From Paraspadella gotoi (taxonomy: Eukaryota; Animalia; Chaetognatha): a stretch of DNA of 10,838 nt. The translations under genes and the position numbers were made by a program. The DNA lies in contig JBJCIZ010000294.1 in the NCBI GenBank assembly GCA_051294375.1, positions 1 to 10,838 of the forward strand, written 5' to 3'. Under the pieces are notes generated by a model that worked only from the letters and a program-made list of their open reading frames with translations, did no database searches and had not been told where the DNA came from. This document shows, one piece after another, positions 1 to 10,838 of this stretch (the first letter of the stretch is position 1; each line of letters starts with the position of its first letter).

Positions 1-2551
1 TCGCCGCCCGCAGCCAGCCGCAGCCGCACGACACCGCCTCCCTCCTCAATCGAGCAGCCTATCACTTTCGTTTGCTTATGATTCCATCGTAAAAGAGAAG
101 CCCTAAGGCCTTGGAGAAGAAAGGACGCGGGACTACGAGAGTGACTATGTTTATGAACAGTACTCACGCACTCCCGCGACATAGTAACGAGCTAAAGCGA
201 CATTTGTTAGGAGTGGGCTACGGGTCAGAGTACCTTTAAAAATTAAATTACAATCAAGCATACTTTCTTGCTGGCACAGTTTTTCTGTGCGTTGACTAGT
301 GTACCCATCTTTATTTGTCCTCGTTTATGATTTGCATTCTTGATATGGAGCAAGTATTATGGAGCATCTACCAAGCTGAATTCCACCACCCACCATGTGG
401 ACTTTACTTCAACATTCCTAACAAATAGCACACTTCCCCACTGCTCCAGATGAATGAAAATTGATGGGTGGTCATCTGAAAAAATCACTTGAAAATCATG
501 ATGACATAACTTTTCTCCCATTGACGAAGACTACAATGAACTATTACCATTCCAAGGGACCTTCCATGGATTTCGGCTTCAGTCTGGATATCACGAGTTA
601 ATCCTCATCGTTATAGTTTCTGACTGCACACAAGACATCTTAACTCGGGTCTTTCAGTTATATTACTGAAATTGATCATTCACACAATTTTCCGCATTAC
701 ATCTAGGAATGTTTCTCTGAAAAGCATACCAGCTCTCGTGAAGATAAGCAGGGACTTGTTGCGATTCGAAGAGGGACAGTAAAGGTTGGCGGAGGCAGCG
801 ATGAGGTTTTCTAGCTTATACGTAAGGGAGGAGAGAGCCCAGAGCAGAGATACACGATAGACTTAGAGAGAAAGTATCCACAAGATATTTTTTCACTACA
901 TGTTTTCGAATTTTCCTCTCCTGCGATCAGATTCAAAGAGCAGACGCAAGGAATCACAGCTTTGGCCATCTATCATCATCGATCATGACGGCATGTTATT
1001 TGTCTATATGGAGGCTTATTTTTATATTATATTTCATGACACAGTGGACACGTATCCTCTCAAGTACATGAACGGGGCTAATTTACAAAAATTTTCCTTC
1101 CCATCTCTTTAGGCTTTTTTTAATTTTCTTTCAAATATATGACCGCTAACATCTCTGCCAGTTGCGAAAACCACTAGTCTTTCTGCTTTATAAAACAAGA
1201 TAACAATAATTGAAAATTAAAAATAAAGTTTTAATACCTGCATTTGGATTAGAGCGAGAAGTTATGTGTTATCACCCTTACTCGAACACGAGAGATGAAC
1301 ACATGTATGCTAGATAATAAAATAAACAAATGCAAACGAGAACTACTGCAGGGAAGTGTTTTTGATGCTATTCTCTCAAATGACACAGGACCTGGACACT
1401 GCGCATGAATATCTAACAAAAGAAGCAGAGGGGAATTTTGCCCGTTAGACACATAAAGAATAGGGTAGACGGACGCTTCCAACAAGACACCCTGGCCTGT
1501 AGCAGAATTTTTTCAAGAAGAGTGAGTAGATTCACCTTACACCTGCTTTTATTTCTCAGCTACACCAAGACCGGAGACCACGTCTTATCGCTCTTCGTTT
1601 AAATTCTGTTCCTTATATCTTCACTGCCAAACAACCACCTCCCAGTCTCCCGCCACATTCTCACTTCCCCACTTATCGTCCCTGAACTGTCTCTCCAACT
1701 TCGAAGTCTCTCGTTCTTTGTCATCATTATCTTCTCAGTTCCTATTTCTCTCTCTTGTTCATATCTGCCGCTACACTTCTTTCACAATTCCGGACCATTC
1801 CAACTCTAAGCTCACTAACCGCTCCACAAGACGAATATCCCACTATCTAACAGCTCAGATGTCGGTCGCAAAAAAAAGAGAGGAATTGTAGTGAATTTGG
1901 TTTTAAAGACTGACTTATTTGCTTTAAAAACGAACTAGTTTAATAGTGAAATCTGGTAATATTAAATTCAGGTTATAAAAGTCGTGATAACTTCAACAAT
2001 AAAATAAAATAAAAAATATTAAACGCAGGGACACAAGGCAAAGAAACTAGAAGTAAAGGAGAGAGATAGATAGATTATGGCTTTGCTTCAATCGCAAGTT
2101 TGATTGACTTGATGGATTGAATTGATTAATGATTGGGTTTGATTGCAAAAGCCTTACAAAACTTTTTGACGAAGCTGTGATATATTGCTTGTTCCTGGAT
2201 ATATTCTCCTTTCAACAAACATCTATTCATCTGAGGCGTATGTTAATTTCTATTACAGTCGTCAGTGCTCATCTCATGCTCTCGCAATGATCTTTAGGAT
2301 CCTCGCCAATCGCTCTACGTTGGTTCCGGTTTCTCACAAAAGAAAAGTCACATTCGCCCTTTAATCAACAAAACTTTTGGGGTATTTTCATTCCGAGGGA
2401 ATGTTAAAAGAAAGACAAATTTGTTTATTTTTAATTTTAAATCAGCGTTTTAAAAAACGTTTCCAACAAAGATTTCTATAGATCACATTTTTTATAAAAA
2501 AATTGTCCTTAGACCAGCTGCTTACCTCAGGACTTGTTGTCAGCTTTGTCA

Positions 2552-2623
2552 GCTCTGGTGGAAACGTCTCAACCTCCTCGCGGGTACCGAGCGGGAACAT
2601 CCTTTGGGATGGCAAAAGAGACG
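2552..2623 (+). ncRNA. HDV-like self-cleaving ribozyme
   Basis: P1 GCTC(T)GGT 2552-2559 / ACCGAGC 2586-2592. P2 CGTCTC 2565-2570 / GAGACG 2618-2623. P3 ACC 2572-2574 / GGT 2583-2585 with L3 TCCTCGCG. P1.1 GG at 2593-2594. P4 CATCC-TTTG-GGATG 2598-2611. J4/2 GCAAAA with the catalytic C at 2613. Confidence 0.88.
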
Positions 2624-2678
2624 GGGGCCCGAAAAACAAGGAAAAGGTCAGCCGAAAGGGGACTCCCGATCCGTTTTT

Positions 2679-5600
2679 ATGGGCAACGGAGTGGGCAAGG
2701 ACCTGCCACCCATGTCACCTCCTAAAACAACATACTGGCTACAGCTCTTAGGGCTGCGTCGCGTGATTTCAATAAGGATGAGGAACGAAGAAACTGATGG
2801 AAGTGAAGGCGGCCCTGGTGACAATCCATCCTAACCCAGGGCCAAGGGACAAGTCAGAGACAGCAAAGGAAGCAAGGAGGAATAGAAGAAAGGAAAAGAG
2901 ACAGGAGAAAAGAAGGAGGAAGCTAGAAAATGAAAGGCGAGAAGACAGTCAGAACGATGAAATTAAACAGCTAAATGTGGTTACCTGGAATGTCGCCAGA
3001 GAATGTCTTTAGAAGGCGCTAATTTTAAGAAAGCCCGATTAGTCGCCGCGAGAGGCGTTATAAGAGAATGGGATGTCGTTCTTCTAGAGCGAAATTTGGG
3101 CGGAAAAAGATGGTGTCATTTGGATGGGACAGGAGGAGGAAGCAGTAGTCATCATACATTCAACGAAGGCAGGAATCCTCCTGAGAGACGAAGCTTTAAA
3201 GAAATGGTGTGAAGAGGGACAAAAGAAAAAATTCTCAGAAAGATGCGTGTCAGTTAAACTGGGTAGGATCACACTGGTATCCACATACATGCCGGTGAAA
3301 AAGCGAGGAAACCTGATAGAAACAGAAGAAACTCGGGAAACGCTAAAAGAGCATATAGGCTGGACAAAAGATGATGAAATATTACTAGTGGGAGGAGACT
3401 TCAATGCGCATATAGGGGGAGATGAAAGTAGGAACAGGACTACGGGGGTCTTTGGACTAAGAAGGTCAAACGAGCAGGGCCGAGATTTGGTGAACTGGTG
3501 CGAGGAGAATGGGTTGTGTTGGGTCAACAACTTCTATAAGGAGAAAAACAGAGGGACATGGTTTTCAACTTTGAACGGGAGATGGTACGAGCTAGATGGA
3601 TTCATAATGAAGGCAGACCAACGCCACCATTACGTTANNNNNNNNNNGACTGTAGGTGATTTGTTCCTATCAGATCACAAACCCAAAAGAATTCTTGTGA
3701 AATTAAAAGGCAAAAAATGGAGGAGAGCCTTTAGCAGGAAAAAAGTACCGGAAATCAAATGGGAGATGTTGAAGATAGAGGAGACAGAGAGAAAGTACCA
3801 GGGAGAAGTAAGAAAGAAGCTAGAACAAGACAGAGAAGATCTAGGATTTATTTCATCTAACTGGAACAGATTAGCACGATGTGTAATGGAGGCAGCGGAG
3901 TTAACATGCGGAAAGAAGGACAAGGGAGTTTCAGACCCATGGATGCTAGGGAAGGAAGAAGAGATGGAACTTATGAAAAGATCGATAACAAACTTAATAA
4001 ACAAGAGGAATGAAATGATGGGAATAGGACGAGGAGGTGGAGGAGGAGATGAAGATTTAAATAAAGTAAAGACAGACCTGAGAGAAGCCAGAAATCTGTG
4101 GAATAAGACCAAGCGTAGATGGGAAAGAGAATGGTGGAATAATGTAATTAAGGAGTGTGCAGAGGCGGGCAGCAGAGGAGATATAGGGAAGNNNNNNNNN
4201 NTTTTACGCCAACTAGGAAGTAGAGGAATGAAGAAAGAAAGCTCGACCACACTGACCAAAGAGGAATTTAAGAACCAATTCTCAAAAGTAGGGTGTGAAA
4301 GGTTTGAAAACAGCCCAGATTCAATTATGAAAGAGGTGGACTGCGCGGTGGATTTAAGAAATGATATAAGGACAAAGAAATGGAGAAAAATTTTAAACGA
4401 AACACCAGACAAAAAAGAGATAGCGAGGGAAATGTCGAAGATGAGAGACGCTGCTCCGGGTGAAGATGGAGTCAGGTTGTTATATTTGATAAAAGGTGGA
4501 GATTTGGTGATGAACGAGTTTGTTAAGGTAGTAACTTTTATGTTTGAAAACGATGCAGACACGTGGGAAGAGGGCCTAAAGAGAGGTTTGGTGGTACCAA
4601 TTTGGAAGAGAAAAGGTAACAAAAACGACCCCAATAACTACAGAGGAGTTTGTCTNNNNNNNNNNGCGAGCAGAGTCTTGGCTAGAGTAGTAGCTAGCAG
4701 ACTTAAAAAGTGGGCTGAGGACATGGGGCTTCTGGATGACGATCAGGCAGGTTTTCGAAATGGTAGATCAACGGCTGACGCGACACAGATGATGATGAGG
4801 ATGCAGGAGGATGCTTTAGATCTGGAGAGAAGGAGATTAAAGAATCAAGACACATTTAATCCATCGGCAAGGTTGCTGGACCTAAGGAAAGCTTACCCAA
4901 GAGTAAACAAACCGGCTTTGTGGCGACTCCTAGGAAGATATGGCCTCGATGGTGCTTTCTTAAAAGTTCTGATAAACCTCCACGAGACGACAGAGTACGC
5001 GGTGAGAGGAAAAGAAGGAGCAAGTGAAGCATGGGTCCCACAGAGGGGTTTGAGAGAAGGGTGCCCTACCTCATGTGACTTATTTAACATCTACCATCAA
5101 GCCGTCATGAGGAGAGCTGCAGAGGAGAGAAAAAACAAAGCGAGAAGAGAAGAACCAAGTTTTTTGGGATCGAGTACAACTGGGTTCCGGTTGTTCTATT
5201 CAAGGGATATGTGGGTAGGAACAATTCGGAATCAGTCACGATAGTAATAGACAAGAGCCTTTTTGCGGACGACACGACGTTAGTAGGGGATGAGAGGAGC
5301 TAGAGGTTGGGGTCGAGATGTGAAAGAGTCATGGGCAGATATGAAGAGAGAAATAATGATGACAAAGAAGAGAGACTCGAGTTGGGAGAGGGATAGTGGG
5401 GAAAGTGAGAATGCCTGGGGAGCTGGATGCGGTTGAGTGAAGATATAGGAACAGAATAAAGAGAGCGAATTAAGACGTGGTGGAAGCTGAAAAAGCAGTT
5501 AAGTGGATCTAGCCTATCTAAAAGATTGCAGGCAAGGGTTGTGGAAGCGTGTGTAGAAAAATTCCTTGCTCTTTTGACAGCGCAGTCAGGGTCTGGACTT

Positions 5601-6477
5601 TGAGAGAAATTAAAACTCTGCAGAGTTTCGTAGATAAAGCATACAGGTATGTGTGGAGGAAGGGAAACAAACCGCCTCTAATCCAAATGCAGCAAGAAGT
5701 CGCAATATGCAAGATGTTAGTGTCCTATTTGAAATAAAAAGCCTAAGATGGAAAATTGAAAAGCGAGTACTTGAGAGGATAGGCCATGTGATGCGTATGG
5801 ATGATGATAGAATGGCAAAAGCTGTGATTCTTGGTTGATGAAGGAATTGGAAAAATGGGAACTTAAGGGTAGAAGAAACAGGCGCACAAACCATTACTGG
5901 AGAAAGCTACTACGAGAAGCTGGATAGATGTATGCGAAATTGGAGAAATAACTAAAGACCAGTAAAATCTGGAGAATTAACGTGAAAGAGCGAATGAGTC
6001 ACTTATGGAATGGGAGAAAAGTTTAGGACACAAATGGACAGGGGAAGTTGTAGTTAGGAATGTTGAAAGAAAGCCAGGGACGTTGGTATGCTCATACTGC
6101 AACAAGGAATTGCATCAAGGGCGGAGTCTAGCAACGCACAGAAAGCGAATGCATGAAGTCTCTAGCCATAAAAAGTCTTTTAGTTGTACTAAGTGCGGGA
6201 GTTGTTTTCAACAAGAGGCCAACTTGATGAATCATAGCAAAGTGTGTGGTGGTAGAGCCAAGGACCCGTGCAAAAGGAAATGTATTTGTGGAAAGAATTT
6301 AGCCCTCACTATACCAGTAGGCATAGGAAAATGTGCGAGAAGGCTCAGAACATGTTAACTGGGCATGAACATGAGTCAGCTAGAGTCTTTAAGAGTGTTG
6401 AGAGTAAAGTGTGAAATTATGTGGACTCGAGCTCGACAGATCAACATCGGCTAGGCCACATGCGACGACAGCACTAA
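2679..6477 (+). CDS. Retrotransposon polyprotein (APE endonuclease - reverse transcriptase - Zn fingers), broken by frameshifts in this sequence
   Basis: Joined from ORF pieces 2604..2834, 2797..3012, 3003..3212, 3124..5244, 5549..5737, 5653..5838 and 6005..6358. Stop TAA at 6475-6477 is equivalent to the stop at 10810-10812 in copy 2. The start ATG at 2679 is tentative (alternatives 2712, 2797). Confidence 0.85.
2797..2844 (+). other. Degenerate 2A-like (StopGo) motif, MEVKAALVTIHPNPGP
   Basis: NPGP at 2833-2844 follows a hydrophobic stretch and sits just upstream of APE, where 2A-like peptides occur in APE-type LINEs. It deviates from D(V/I)ExNPGP: T replaces D and H replaces E. Confidence 0.6.
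2971..3678 (+). other. APE (EEP-fold) endonuclease domain
   Basis: Motifs LNVVTWNV (2971-2994), WDVVLL(x)E, GGDFNAH (3391-3411), TW...ELD and SDH (3670-3678). Confidence 0.92.
4441..5430 (+). other. Non-LTR reverse transcriptase domain
   Basis: Motifs APGEDG, NYRG, QAGFRNGRSTAD, LDLRKAYPRV and GLREGCPTS..LFN. The catalytic FADD is at 5262-5273, in a shifted frame, and LGSW follows. Confidence 0.95.
6089..6474 (+). other. C-terminal array of four zinc fingers (frameshifted here, intact in copy 2)
   Basis: Copy 2 reads CSYC..HRKRMH, CTKC..(H)...C, CIC..HRKMC and CEIC..HMRRQH. The H of finger 2 is masked in copy 2 but present in copy 1 (NHSKVC). Confidence 0.85.
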
Positions 6478-6481
6478 GAGT

Positions 6482-6523
6482 GAGGCAGTCCCTCGTAGAC
6501 GAACGCCTTTCAAGTCAAGTCAA
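6482..6523 (+). other. LINE 3' UTR stem-loop and (TCAAG)n tail
   Basis: GAGGC 6482-6486 / GCCTT 6505-6509 encloses GTCC/GGAC (perfect in copy 2, 10823-10836). TCAAGTCAAGTCAA follows at 6510-6523. Confidence 0.7.
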
Positions 6524-6893: not shown

Positions 6894-7482
6894 TGAGAAA
6901 AAAAGAATCGATATCTCACCTGGATTTCTGCTCTGAAAAGTCGATGTGGACGAAAGGCGAAACCTTTTGTGCCGGTGGCGTTCCCCGACCGCCACGGAAG
7001 ATGGCGCCGGCGACTACGACGACGACACCGACGACGAGAGATCGCGACAAGGGCTCCTCCGATTGGCGGCGTCGACTTCGGCGTGTTTTCGTTCTCTGTG
7101 GGCGTGGGAGGGTCGGTGTCGCGATGCGGAAGGATCGTCGATCTGTGGTTTGAAAAAGGATGTATTTGATGCGTTGGGCGAAAATTGCGGATTTACAGAG
7201 TGACGCAATTAGGCGAAATAAACAATTAACAATTATTCTAACACTTACTTAAATTTTCTTCGAATTCGAATAAAGAGATGTTGGAAATATTTTATAAAAA
7301 TATACGGCGATATAAGTCGAAGAAAAAAAAAATCATCGAGGGGAAAAAAAGGGCAAATGAAAGAGCAAGAGAAAACGAAGGAAATAGTCAACCGAAAATA
7401 ATAACGCGAAAGATAATCGTAAAACGGTGAGTGAGATTAAGGTCAGAATTCTTTTACCCAGATCCTGGGATTCGGTCAGGGA

Positions 7483-7750
7483 TCACGATGAGTGTCGCGA
7501 GCGACGTCGTCGTTTCTTGTTTTTGTTTTGTTCTTTTTTTTTGTGTTGTTGTTGACTATTTTAAATCTACGTAATTAATAATTTATCATCAGTTTCTCGT
7601 TCTTGAGGCCCTAGCCTACCGCTTATATAACTCACTCAATCCCTCCTTTGTATCCGCGCCTTCCTTCTCCTTCGCTCTCACGCGGGTGATCGGCGTCATC
7701 GTCATCGTCAGAAAAGTGATACGGGTCCGCTGAGTCAGCGGGCGCGCCAT
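7483..7750 (-). CDS. Possible spliced host gene fragment (basic, low-complexity product of unknown function)
   Basis: ATG 7750 is open to a GT donor at 7619. A 64-nt AT-rich GT-AG intron (7619-7556) joins in phase to RQQQHKKKEQNKNKKRRRRSRHSS, with TGA at 7485-7483. An alternative ATG at 7773 lies in CAAGATGGCGGC. No homology recognised. Confidence 0.3.
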
Positions 7751-7765
7751 CTGGATTCGTTGGGC

Positions 7766-7891
7766 GCCGCCATCTTGAAGAAGAAGAAGAGGAGAGAGGA
7801 GGAGGCGTTCGGTGTGTCAGACTCGCCAGCGACGGCGCGCGGGTAATGTGGCCGCGGGGGCGTGACTAATCGATTGACGCGTCCCTTTATA
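7766..7891 (-). promoter_or_regulatory. Candidate Pol II promoter / 5' region
   Basis: On the minus strand, TATAAAG (7891-7885) is followed by a CpG-rich segment, a pyrimidine tract and the YY1/Kozak-like CAAGATGGCGGC. Confidence 0.3.
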
Positions 7892-8114
7892 GGGGGGAGG
7901 AGGAGAGGGAAGGGGGGATAAACGTTGAAGCGAAGTCGAATACAAAAGATGATAATAAGCTAAATGTATTAAGAGACTAAGGCAACTTATCATAGACCTT
8001 ACTCATTGGTAAGTCGCCTCAAGACAATATTAATGAATGCGCGAACCCTACGGACGAATCTATAAAAAAGACGATCGATGTTGAGACTAAAAAGTGATTA
8101 ATAAATCGAGCAAG

Positions 8115-8346
8115 TGAAGAGACAGTAATTATTGATAAGTGTTAATGACAGAACCGTTCAATATAAGCAGTTCCTGAGCTTCGGATCAGGCTGTAACACC
8201 ATGTTACAGGCGGGTTAAAGCGCCCCGTCCCTTCTAATTGCAGACGACCACCGGGCTAGAACCCCGACCTTTGGTTGGGAGGCGAATGACTTGCCTCGCA
8301 CCAATGGCCGTGATGAACGGTTGGTGGATTTTAAGTCCACCATACA
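8115..8346 (-). repeat. 3' LTR (232 bp)
   Basis: Direct repeat of 8524-8751. Similarity ends essentially at the TG/CA termini. Confidence 0.88.
8244..8311 (-). pseudogene. tRNA-like (Gly-CCC-like) segment in the 3' LTR, putative Pol III internal promoter
   Basis: Acceptor-like CGGCCA/TGGTCG, a CT-CCC-AA loop, a GGTC variable loop and a B-box-like GGTTCTAGCCC. The anticodon stem is poorly paired, so this is not a functional tRNA. Confidence 0.65.
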
Positions 8347-8357
8347 TCCCCCCTCCC
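8347..8357 (-). other. Polypurine tract (PPT)
   Basis: Minus strand GGGAGGGGGGA lies immediately before the TG of the 3' LTR. Confidence 0.85.
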
Positions 8358-8504
8358 GTAGGAGAAGTCTGTTGCGTCTCTTCAGTGAATTGTTGTTGGT
8401 GGAAAGTTCGTCACCAGTTGAGGCATGTCGCCTGATGTGTGTGGGCGGAAAGTGCATCGCCAGGTTTGAGATGTCGCCTGAAAGTGTTGTTGTTGCTGTT
8501 GTGT

Positions 8505-8522
8505 TCGGAAGTCGGCTCACCA
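8505..8522 (-). other. Primer-binding site (PBS)
   Basis: TGGTGAGCCGACTTCCGA begins 1 nt after the 5' LTR end (..CA-T-TGG). TGG is complementary to the tRNA CCA end. The priming tRNA is not identified. Confidence 0.75.
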
Positions 8523-8523
8523 A

Positions 8524-8751
8524 TGAAGAGACAGTAATTATTGATAAGTGGTTAATGACAGAACCGGCAATATAGCAGTTCCTGAGCTTTCGGATCAGGC
8601 TGTAACACCAATGTTACAGGCGGTTAAGCGCCCCGTCCTCTTAATGCCAGACGACACCGGCTAGAACCCCGGACTTTGGGTTGGGAGGCGAATGACTTGC
8701 CTCCGGCACAATGGCCGCTGATGAACGTTGGTGATTTTAGTCCACCATACA
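8524..8751 (-). repeat. 5' LTR (228 bp)
   Basis: Minus strand TGTATGGTGG...GTCTCTTCA. Matches 8115-8346 apart from mostly small indels. Confidence 0.88.
8651..8718 (-). pseudogene. tRNA-like segment in the 5' LTR
   Basis: GCGGCCATTGTGCCGGAGGCAAGTCATTCGCCTCCCAACCCAAAGTCCGGGGTTCTAGCCGGTGTCGT, the same architecture as the other copy. Confidence 0.65.
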
Positions 8752-8879
8752 AGTTTTTTTTTTAAGTCTGCGTGCGCGAGACGTTTTAAACAATGAATCA
8801 TTTAAGGGACGAAGCCTTCCGAAGGTCAACAGTTTTCATCGTAACAAATGAGACGTGAATTTGAAATTTAATCGAAGCC

Positions 8880-9060
8880 GAGCGGAGAGGATGGGAAGGC
8901 GGGGATGGGATGGGGAAGGCCAAAACGGGACGGATAGGGAAGAGACGGGATGAGGATGGTCAGGGGGAAAAGAAGGGAAAGATTTGAAGATATAACTTAA
9001 AAGAAGGGTAAGGAAGGTTGGATAGGCTATGGGGGACGGAGGGGACGGAAACAGGAACAA
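8880..9060. repeat. Purine-rich (GGA/GGGA) low-complexity tract
   Basis: Strong G/A skew on the + strand with no strict period. Confidence 0.55.
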
Positions 9061-9681: not shown

Positions 9682-10838
9682 AATGATGACAAAGAAGAGA
9701 GACTCGAGTTTGGGAGAGGGGATAGTGGGGAAGTGAGAATGCTGGGGAGCTGGATGGGTTGGAGTGAAGATATAAGGAACAGANNNNNNNNNNCGAATAA
9801 GACGTGGTGGAAGCTGAAAAAGCAGTTAAGTGGATCTAGCCTATCTAAAAGATTGCAGGCAAGGGTTGTGGANNNNNNNNNNGAAAATTCCTTGCTCTTT
9901 GACAGCGCAGTCAGGGTCTGGACTTTGAGAGAAATTAAAACTCTGCAGAGNNNNNNNNNNAAAGCATACAGGTATGTGTGGAGGAAGGGAAACAAACCGC
10001 CTCTAATCCAAATGCAGGAAGAAGGTCGCAATATGCAAGATGTTAGGTCCTATTTGAAAATAAAAAGCCTAAGATGGAAAATTGAAAAGCACGAGTACTG
10101 AGAGGATAGGCCAATGTGATGCGTATGGATGATGATAGATGGCAAAAGCTGTGATTCTTGGTTGGATGAACAAGGAATTGGAAAAAATGGGAACTAAAGG
10201 GTAAAGAAAACAGGCGACAACCATTACTGGAGAAAGCTAGCTACGAGAAGCTGGGATAGTGATGCGAAATTGGAGAAAATAACTAGAAGACCGTAAAAAT
10301 TCCTCTGGAAGAATTAACGTGAAAGAGCGAATGAGTCACTTATATGGGATGGATAAAGTTTAGGACACAAATGGACAGGGGAAGTTGTAGTTAGGAATGT
10401 TGAAAGAAAGCCAGGGACGTTGGTATGCTCATACTGCAACAAGGAATGCAAGTCAAGGGCGGGTCTAGCAACGCACAGAAAGCGAATGCATGAAGTCTCT
10501 AGCCATAAAAAGTCTTTTAGTTGTACTAAGTGCGGGGAGTTGTTTCAACAAGAGGCCAACTTGATGNNNNNNNNNNAAGTGTGTGGTGGTAGAGCCAAGG
10601 ACCCGTCAAAAAGGAAATGTATTTGTGGGAAAGAATTTAGCCCTCACTATATCAGTAGGCATAGGAAAATGTGCGAGAAGGCTCAGAACATGTTAACTGG
10701 GCATGAACATGAGTCAGCTAGAGTCTTTAAGAGTGTGAGAGTAAAGTGTGAAATATGTGGACTCGAGCTCGACAGATCAAATCGAGCTAGGCACATGCGA
10801 CGACAGCACTAAGAGTGAGGCAGTCCCTCGTAGGACGA
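9682..10838 (+). mobile_element. Second, 5'-truncated copy of the same LINE (RT C-terminus to Zn fingers and 3' UTR), running off the window end
   Basis: Aligns to ~5355-6502 with mostly indel differences. ORFs 9601..10101 (homologous from ~9682) and 10420..10812. The 5' junction is hidden in or near the 25-N run at 9657-9681. Confidence 0.93.

Follow-up and report, generated by a model that had tools for sequence, protein, structure and literature searches.

Two groups of described elements come closest to the locus reported here (published work is cited throughout from excerpts of each paper). One is Helenus (TRIMp3; Kojima 2024, PMC10886601), whose target site duplications (TSDs) measure 4 bp in animals and 5 bp in fungi and plants. 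The other comprises the LTR retrozymes, which carry hammerhead ribozymes and are known primarily from plants, whereas the hammerhead retrozymes of animals are non-LTR elements (PMC4918200, PMC7761336, PMC7229834). Replication of retrozymes is modelled as formation of a circle, priming by a tRNA, repeated reverse transcription and integration by Gypsy (PMC4918200, PMC7761336).

Here, we analysed one window, i.e. the whole stretch of DNA under study (10,838 nt), which contains a very small LTR retroelement on the minus strand. Its known part is a Helenus-like TRIM with a tRNA head, and its new part would be the twister ribozyme that is predicted in the LTR. In the literature examined (including, in excerpts, PMC11722881, PMC13570524 and 10.64898/2026.07.22.740005, most subscription papers lying outside it), neither a twister in an LTR element nor a ribozyme in TRIMp3 was found.

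Structure, copies and surroundings of the element

The element and its parts are located as follows:

8115..8751, minus strand: whole element, a 637-nt non-coding LTR retroelement (TRIM)
8524..8751 (8751-8524), minus strand: 5' LTR, 228 nt, TG..CA ends
8650..8718, minus strand: decayed tRNA-Gly-like block, 5' LTR copy (tRNA-Gly model 8.2 bits, E 0.66)
8575..8648, minus strand: predicted type-P5 twister of the 5' LTR, with cutting expected between 8626 and 8625
8506..8522, minus strand: primer-binding site (PBS), tRNA-Trp-like; TGGTGAG.. begins at 8522, 2 nt behind the 5' LTR
8394..8481, minus strand: two 42-nt internal repeats, 76% identical, each with predicted hairpins
8376..8384, minus strand: internal segment with complementarity to the 3' end of the LTR and predicted pairing across the PBS
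8347..8357, minus strand: polypurine tract (PPT), 11 nt, abutting the 3' LTR
8115..8346 (8346-8115), minus strand: 3' LTR, 232 nt, TG..CA ends
8243..8311, minus strand: decayed tRNA-Gly(CCC)-like block, 3' LTR copy (ARAGORN -ps92; 26 bits, E 1.3e-6)
8167..8241, minus strand: predicted type-P5 twister of the 3' LTR, with cutting expected between 8217 and 8216
8218..8224 (5' copy 8632-8627), minus strand: self-complementary linker replacing P1, 6-bp self-duplex of -8.3 to -8.5 kcal/mol
8111..8114, plus strand: 4-nt target site, single copy in the empty allele

The element is almost certainly a real TRIM: it is shorter than 1 kb and non-coding, it has two LTRs with TG..CA ends, and a PBS and a PPT bound its internal region. 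A preliminary description had reported TG..CA direct repeats, a PBS and a PPT that agree on the minus strand, with no credible protein-coding ORF. These features were confirmed with exact coordinates; the longest Met-started frame in the element has 80 aa, and a Pfam search with the two longest open frames gave no family at E<=1. The alignment of the two LTRs contains 215 identities, 5 mismatches and 20 gap columns. Because the window is noisy (about 5% indels; in a 198-nt flank compared with contigs, 7 of the 8 listed indels consist of letters that the window lacks, two dinucleotides among them), much of this difference is probably read error. The 42-nt internal repeats, judged by their predicted folding, could possibly act as a packaging signal. 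The first ~25 nt of each LTR (8747-8728 and 8342-8322, minus strand) form a small predicted hairpin upstream of the tRNA block, and the loop of this hairpin differs among copies.

The PBS matches the Trp PBS of Gypsy-32_NVi (PMC10886601) at 12 of 13 positions if an extra base at 8513, present in 32-99% of contig depth, is counted. A search with the PBS complement returned 125 matches, 84 of which fall at tRNA 3' ends. Most of the 125 matches (70) are to tRNA-Lys(TTT) of bacterial appearance, and the primer isotype can be called Trp-like only tentatively. A PBS pattern was also found at 9 loci in viral contigs, where similarity is limited to the pattern itself.

Evidence on copies came from contigs of four public runs (of 9 runs in 3 studies) that were placed on 7950-8950 with a threshold of 85% likeness; 2760, 8465, 1505 and 606 contigs matched this region in the four runs. 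As the preliminary description had expected of a mobile element, dispersed copies with fixed ends are present in all four. Loose contig ends start sharply at 8115 in 20, 125, 87 and 33 contigs, respectively, and 48 contigs of run X2 have loose ends at 8749. Beyond these two ends, agreement among the flanks is only 0.41-0.49, which implies many unrelated insertion sites. Relative to the flank, contig depth is 18,000-39,000x at the LTR peak and 600-3,800x in the internal region, ratios that do not equal copy numbers. A 21-nt LTR pattern had 0 matches in viral and metagenome contigs. Both LTRs carry a minority base at 8172/8580 (the other base accounts for 96-100% of contig depth) and share a minority letter at 8238/8645 as well, as expected if both had been copied from one template. 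Three joints in runs X2 and X5, which connect 8212-8218 to 8310-8312, cut out the tRNA block together with half of the predicted twister (the first); these forms are rare, at flank-like depth, and seem not to have been amplified.

The insertion itself is polymorphic. An empty site was observed in four of four runs (X2, X3, X4 and X5, representing 3 samples of 2 studies; 8736-8960), with one contig in each, and no filled junction was found among the contigs of these runs over 8736-8960. As contigs drop rare variants, the empty-site contigs show insertion polymorphism rather than absence of the insertion. One X2 contig connects 8105 directly to 8754. A second copy of the target site is present in the window at 8750-8753, where it overlaps the terminal dinucleotide of the LTR, and the window as it stands shows no clean TSD; a 4-bp TSD is probable for this one site, provided that a repeated dinucleotide was dropped from the window. 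Mobilisation in trans, as originally suggested, is thus supported by a non-coding element with many unrelated insertion sites and an empty site in each of the four runs.

Several other features lie in the surrounding sequence. A non-LTR retrotransposon at 2556-6522 (plus strand) carries an HDV-like ribozyme at the 5' end (31.4 bits, below gathering) and further comprises endonuclease and RT domains, a short 5-nt tandem tail and, close to the 3' end, C2H2 fingers (scored on its second copy). Most of its matches are without a name; the named ones belong to Symsagittifera and to Branchiostoma, the latter with 54% over the RT region. Taken with the 4-bp target and the Trp-like PBS of the TRIM, these homologues make an animal host probable. 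The second copy, at 9682-10838 (plus strand), is 5'-truncated, indel-rich and 91% identical, and older antisense fragments occur at 1577-1745, 951-983 and 402-422 (minus strand). A 9-nt antisense match between the TRIM and the 3' end of this neighbouring LINE was attributed to chance by a rough hand estimate, and a short-word BLAST of the two gave no match. CpG-rich stretches are located at 7700-7920 (minus strand) and 6950-7150; one of them contains a TATA-like box near 7890 and, behind it, a pyrimidine-rich tract. A gene or element could possibly start here, a short way downstream of the TRIM.

The tRNA-like block and the predicted twister

According to the preliminary description, a ~70-nt tRNA-shaped block with a CCC anticodon lies about 35 nt into each LTR on the same strand. 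Location and strand were confirmed, the block beginning at LTR nt 34-36. The tRNA shape with a CCC anticodon held for the 3' copy, in which the relaxed search with ARAGORN -ps92 identified tRNA-Gly(CCC) c8243-8311 as the sole gene in the 10.8-kb window; any gene was found at this setting in 5/5000 shuffles of the LTR and 24/5000 of the element. The 5' copy was recovered neither by ARAGORN in the tRNA-Gly(CCC) register nor by an A/B-box scan, and even in the 3' copy the anticodon stem pairs at only three of five positions. ARAGORN reported 0 tRNAs in the window by default and no gene with -ps93, and Rfam RF00005, the covariance model proposed earlier as a check, had no match at E<=10.

Comparison with other tRNAs points to tRNA-Gly. 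When the blocks were compared with 126 tRNAs, each matched a Gly best (48 identities; 0/300 shuffles). A model built from 67 tRNA-Gly genes ranked the two blocks first and second of 8 matches, in a test that is partly circular as these genes had been chosen with a block-like pattern; a model of 30 non-Gly tRNAs gave 6.4 bits (third of 10), which is not significant. An anticodon/T-arm pattern taken from the window was discarded: it hit 74 loci with only 2 tRNAs, both Gly, and Gly was built into the pattern. With regard to the promoter boxes, a scan with an A/B-box consensus found only the 3' copy, with 3 mismatches, a result equalled by 76/2000 shuffles. The GGTTC of box B is present, and box A departs from TRGCY, the form reported in most Helenus. 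Where copies vary, the changes preserve or strengthen box A and the acceptor-like stem: those at 8244 and 8247 convert G-U to G-C in the stem, that at 8705 yields the canonical A14, and those at 8302 and 8704 exchange purines at R positions.

It is highly probable, judging from sequence likeness, that the block is derived from a tRNA. It is a decayed, promoter-like relic rather than a working tRNA, because its anticodon stem is broken. These features suggest that Pol III probably uses the block as an internal promoter. The sense strand of the element has no T4, which is not significant (166/2000 shuffles), and the first T4 lies 22 nt past the element; neither AATAAA nor TATAAA occurs on this strand.

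Immediately after the tRNA block, the 3' half of the LTR can be parsed as a twister of the circularly permuted type (P5). The preliminary reading of a SINE/LTR hybrid stands insofar as the element is a Helenus-like dispersed TRIM with a tRNA-derived block, and it had missed this fold. The predicted order is P5 strand, P2', GA, PK2' (CGG), short linker, U|AA, P2, GC, P3, P4 and P5 strand, with a P3 of 8 bp and a P4 of 5 bp that closes U-CCG-AA-GC. The conserved nucleotides of L1 and L4, the general acid A, the general base G and both pseudoknots are all present. A descriptor based on Table 1 of PMC8501958, which was written after the LTR sequence had been seen, matches the window once, in the 3' LTR with the cut after 8217; it matched 0/20,000 shuffles of the LTR and 0/10,000 of the element, and a version with a looser P2 matched 0/20,000 shuffles for each LTR. 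The 5' LTR copy fails the descriptor, being one base short in each of two P2 homopolymers, and we read these missing bases as read error. By inspection, this copy has the L1, PK1 and PK2 nucleotides, P3 and P4, with one extra A in L4.

The descriptor was controlled on viral loci. With the common core, 7 of 120 passed and all seven are Rfam twister-P5 RNAs above gathering, and a descriptor-failing locus had no Rfam match. With the PK2 variant of the element, 4 of 120 passed, namely two twister-P5 RNAs above gathering (57.5 and 52.9 bits) and two loci that match twister-P1 below gathering. Altogether, 11/11 passing loci match an Rfam twister family, 9 of them above gathering. Since two Rfam twister-P5 RNAs carry it, the compensatory PK2 swap of the element occurs in recognised twisters. 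The twisters seen in viral contigs are L554, L591, L520, L534, L369, L393, L397, L400, L424, L429 and L466; L554 and L591 satisfy the permuted descriptor, yet their best score is twister-P1 below gathering.

Some parts of the predicted fold are weak. P2 has 2 Watson-Crick pairs, P1 has at most 1 bp as a monomer, and P5 pairs at 4 of 5 positions in the window copy (all 5 if 8238 has its common letter). Pairing probabilities in the 3' copy are 0.81 for P3 and 0.96 for P4, and the monomer twister fold, with pseudoknots left out, lies about 9 kcal/mol above the minimum-energy fold. Rfam twister covariance models missed both LTR copies, and a sequence-only profile of 8 natural twisters placed the LTRs first and second of 4 matches (12.2 and 3.4 bits), out of register. 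Within 8173-8232, the sole substitution of at least 10%, among the variants listed for contigs placed at 85% likeness, lies in the P3 loop. When ~1,950 natural twisters of type P1 were tested, they tolerated defects in P1 and P2, in contrast to defects in pseudoknots or catalytic bases (PMC11662667), and P1 is dispensable (PMC5408937); by analogy, the defects here would fall among the parts that twisters tolerate. Two other candidates were set aside: a first narrow twister pattern hit 1 locus, itself not a twister, and a hammerhead reading of the P4 region has, by eye, an incomplete core. An Rfam scan of the element gave no hammerhead match in the LTRs.

The linker in place of P1 has the form of a 1-bp stem with a palindromic tetraloop, and the chance of 6-nt self-complementarity in it is 0.02-0.05. 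The modelled self-duplex suggests that it may pair between the two LTR copies. Axolotl hammerheads with a 1-bp stem and a palindromic tetraloop cut better as dimers (PMC7229834). Taken as a whole, the 3' half of the LTR is very likely of genuine twister ancestry and would probably cut.

Possible modes of replication

Based on models and on analogy with retrozymes, we consider it moderately probable that the element replicates in a retrozyme-like manner, through a self-cut and probably circular RNA that would be copied by Gypsy enzymes. Pol III would initiate at LTR nt ~35, and the predicted twisters in both LTRs would cut after 8626 and 8217, possibly as a pair. The released RNA of 409 nt (~410 nt) would consist of the PBS, the internal region, the PPT and the tRNA block of the 3' LTR. 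After its ligation into a circle, tRNA priming and more than one round of reverse transcription would follow, and enzymes of a presumed Gypsy element would carry out the integration. The retrozyme model was applied because the cut RNA would keep no terminal repeat. A more specific version, in which the two LTR copies pair via a palindromic P1 into a double twister and yield a ~410-nt circle for Gypsy reverse transcription, can be put forward tentatively from the modelled pairing.

The best surviving alternative, which we regard as unlikely on balance, is that the twister serves only to make the 3' end. Its cut in the 3' LTR would substitute for a Pol III terminator while the 5' copy is slow, and the linear RNA would retain a ~95-nt terminal repeat for ordinary strand transfer, making a circle unnecessary. 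Such a role would fit the absence of both T4 and AATAAA from the sense strand. The weak P1 and P2 together with the competing fold could slow the first copy, and a circular monomer would have only modest structure: when folded in this form, the 409-nt RNA is 50% paired (z -1.7), below the 70% cited for animal retrozyme RNAs. However, both LTRs copy one sequence, and hence neither should stay uncut indefinitely; once the 5' end is cut, no repeat is left, and known LTR elements with two ribozymes form circles (PMC4918200).

It is distinctly unlikely that the element is an ordinary Helenus-type TRIM with standard linear replication, in which the twister is a dead passenger from a SINE-like insert. 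The short P2, the nearly absent P1 and the lack of an Rfam match would be expected of such a remnant, and all remaining features fit Helenus. On the other hand, the defects lie in tolerated parts with pseudoknots and catalytic bases intact, common variation spares the core (among the variants listed), and the PK2 change is compensatory.

We consider it very improbable that a TRIM with retrozyme-like replication is driven by Pol II or by read-through, with the tRNA block as a relic and not a promoter. Neither box A nor box B fits the consensus fully, and 76/2000 shuffles do as well, and the LTR promoter of the plant retrozyme NbRZ1 drove a GUS reporter (PMC12029980). However, the sense strand lacks AATAAA and TATAAA, just ~35 nt are available upstream of the block, and forms without the block occur only at flank-like depth. 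Finally, there is next to no chance that the element is a local duplication or arose from the assembly of a noisy read, to which the missing filled junction in the runs examined and the indel rate of the window could point. Thousands of contigs have fixed ends but differ in their flanks, and the insertion falls precisely on a 4-nt target that the empty allele has once; as regards the family, this reading is largely refuted.

Comparison with known systems

If the retrozyme-like reading is true, a SINE-type promoter, a twister and Gypsy signals would be combined in 640 nt. The element would join LTR retrozymes, animal retrozymes and Helenus, the last of which is without an explained transcript end, and would offer both a natural function for the permuted twister and a candidate dimeric twister. 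It represents a small, polymorphic, high-copy system for studying cutting, circle formation and Pol III use.

With regard to the twister, the same element order, U|AA cut site, GC, U-NNN-AA-GC loop and GA are found in type-P5 twisters (RF02684; PMC5408937, PMC11662667), as are both pseudoknots, P3, P4 and P5. Type-P5 twisters have a long P1 hairpin, whereas the element has a self-complementary linker of 6-7 nt, and their P2 has 4 pairs as compared with 2 Watson-Crick pairs in the element, which Rfam missed. A retroelement with a twister has been described as well: Perere-3 (PMC8501958) carries one of type P1 at the 5' end of a LINE. The Sm-alpha SINE-like repeats of Schistosoma (PMC6765202) share the order of a Pol III promoter (likely here) followed by a ribozyme (predicted here), and axolotl non-LTR retrozymes (PMC7229834) share the 1-bp stem with a palindromic tetraloop, which acts as a dimer in them and may do so here; the ribozyme of both is a hammerhead. 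Unlike the element, Sm-alpha, the animal non-LTR retrozymes and Perere-3 have no LTRs, PBS or PPT.

The element agrees with Helenus (PMC10886601) in its length of less than 1 kb, two LTRs, PBS, PPT, absence of an ORF and a tRNA-like block with box A/B in each LTR, and with animal Helenus in a Gypsy-type PBS and a 4-bp TSD (probable in the element). It differs in the twister fold behind the block. Many Helenus LTRs, among those inspected, have a T-run after the block, which is lacking in the element, and the block of the element is Gly-like, whereas a search of the Helenus supplement returned no 'Gly'. Short-motif searches of that supplement revealed no listed family like the element. The suggestion of a new family thus holds with respect to the Helenus set of Kojima, compared by short motifs only. 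No ribozyme is reported for Helenus in the excerpted text of PMC10886601. In its DataS1, two Trp-primed LTRs, Helenus-2_SyJa-LTR and Helenus-2_SyUm-LTR, have an apparent hammerhead core by eye, which is complete, shows loop-loop complementarity, lies behind the tRNA-like block and is absent from the same text. Together with these apparent hammerhead cores, and if the present reading is true, part of Helenus would be unrecognised retrozymes in which the class of ribozyme is interchangeable, and ribozyme scans of Helenus LTRs would be predicted to yield more cases.

The closest parallel in mode of replication would be the plant LTR retrozymes (PMC4918200, PMC7761336), which are likewise non-coding with a self-cleaving motif in each LTR (predicted here). 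A PBS, a PPT, a 4-bp TSD (probable here), Gypsy dependence (presumed here) and a monomer bounded by two cut sites (predicted here) are also shared (PMC4918200). Their motifs are type III hammerheads, in contrast to the twister fold of the element; they have a tRNA-Met PBS and LTRs of ~350 bp, as against a Trp-like PBS and a 230-bp LTR, and their circles are highly paired, whereas the monomer here is half paired as a circle. A tRNA-derived promoter, which would correspond to the tRNA head of the element, is not reported in the excerpts of PMC4918200 and PMC7761336, and their hosts are plants, whereas the element is probably from an animal. By analogy, then, the element would be better said to work like an LTR retrozyme than to be one, with a twister fold in the place of the hammerhead.
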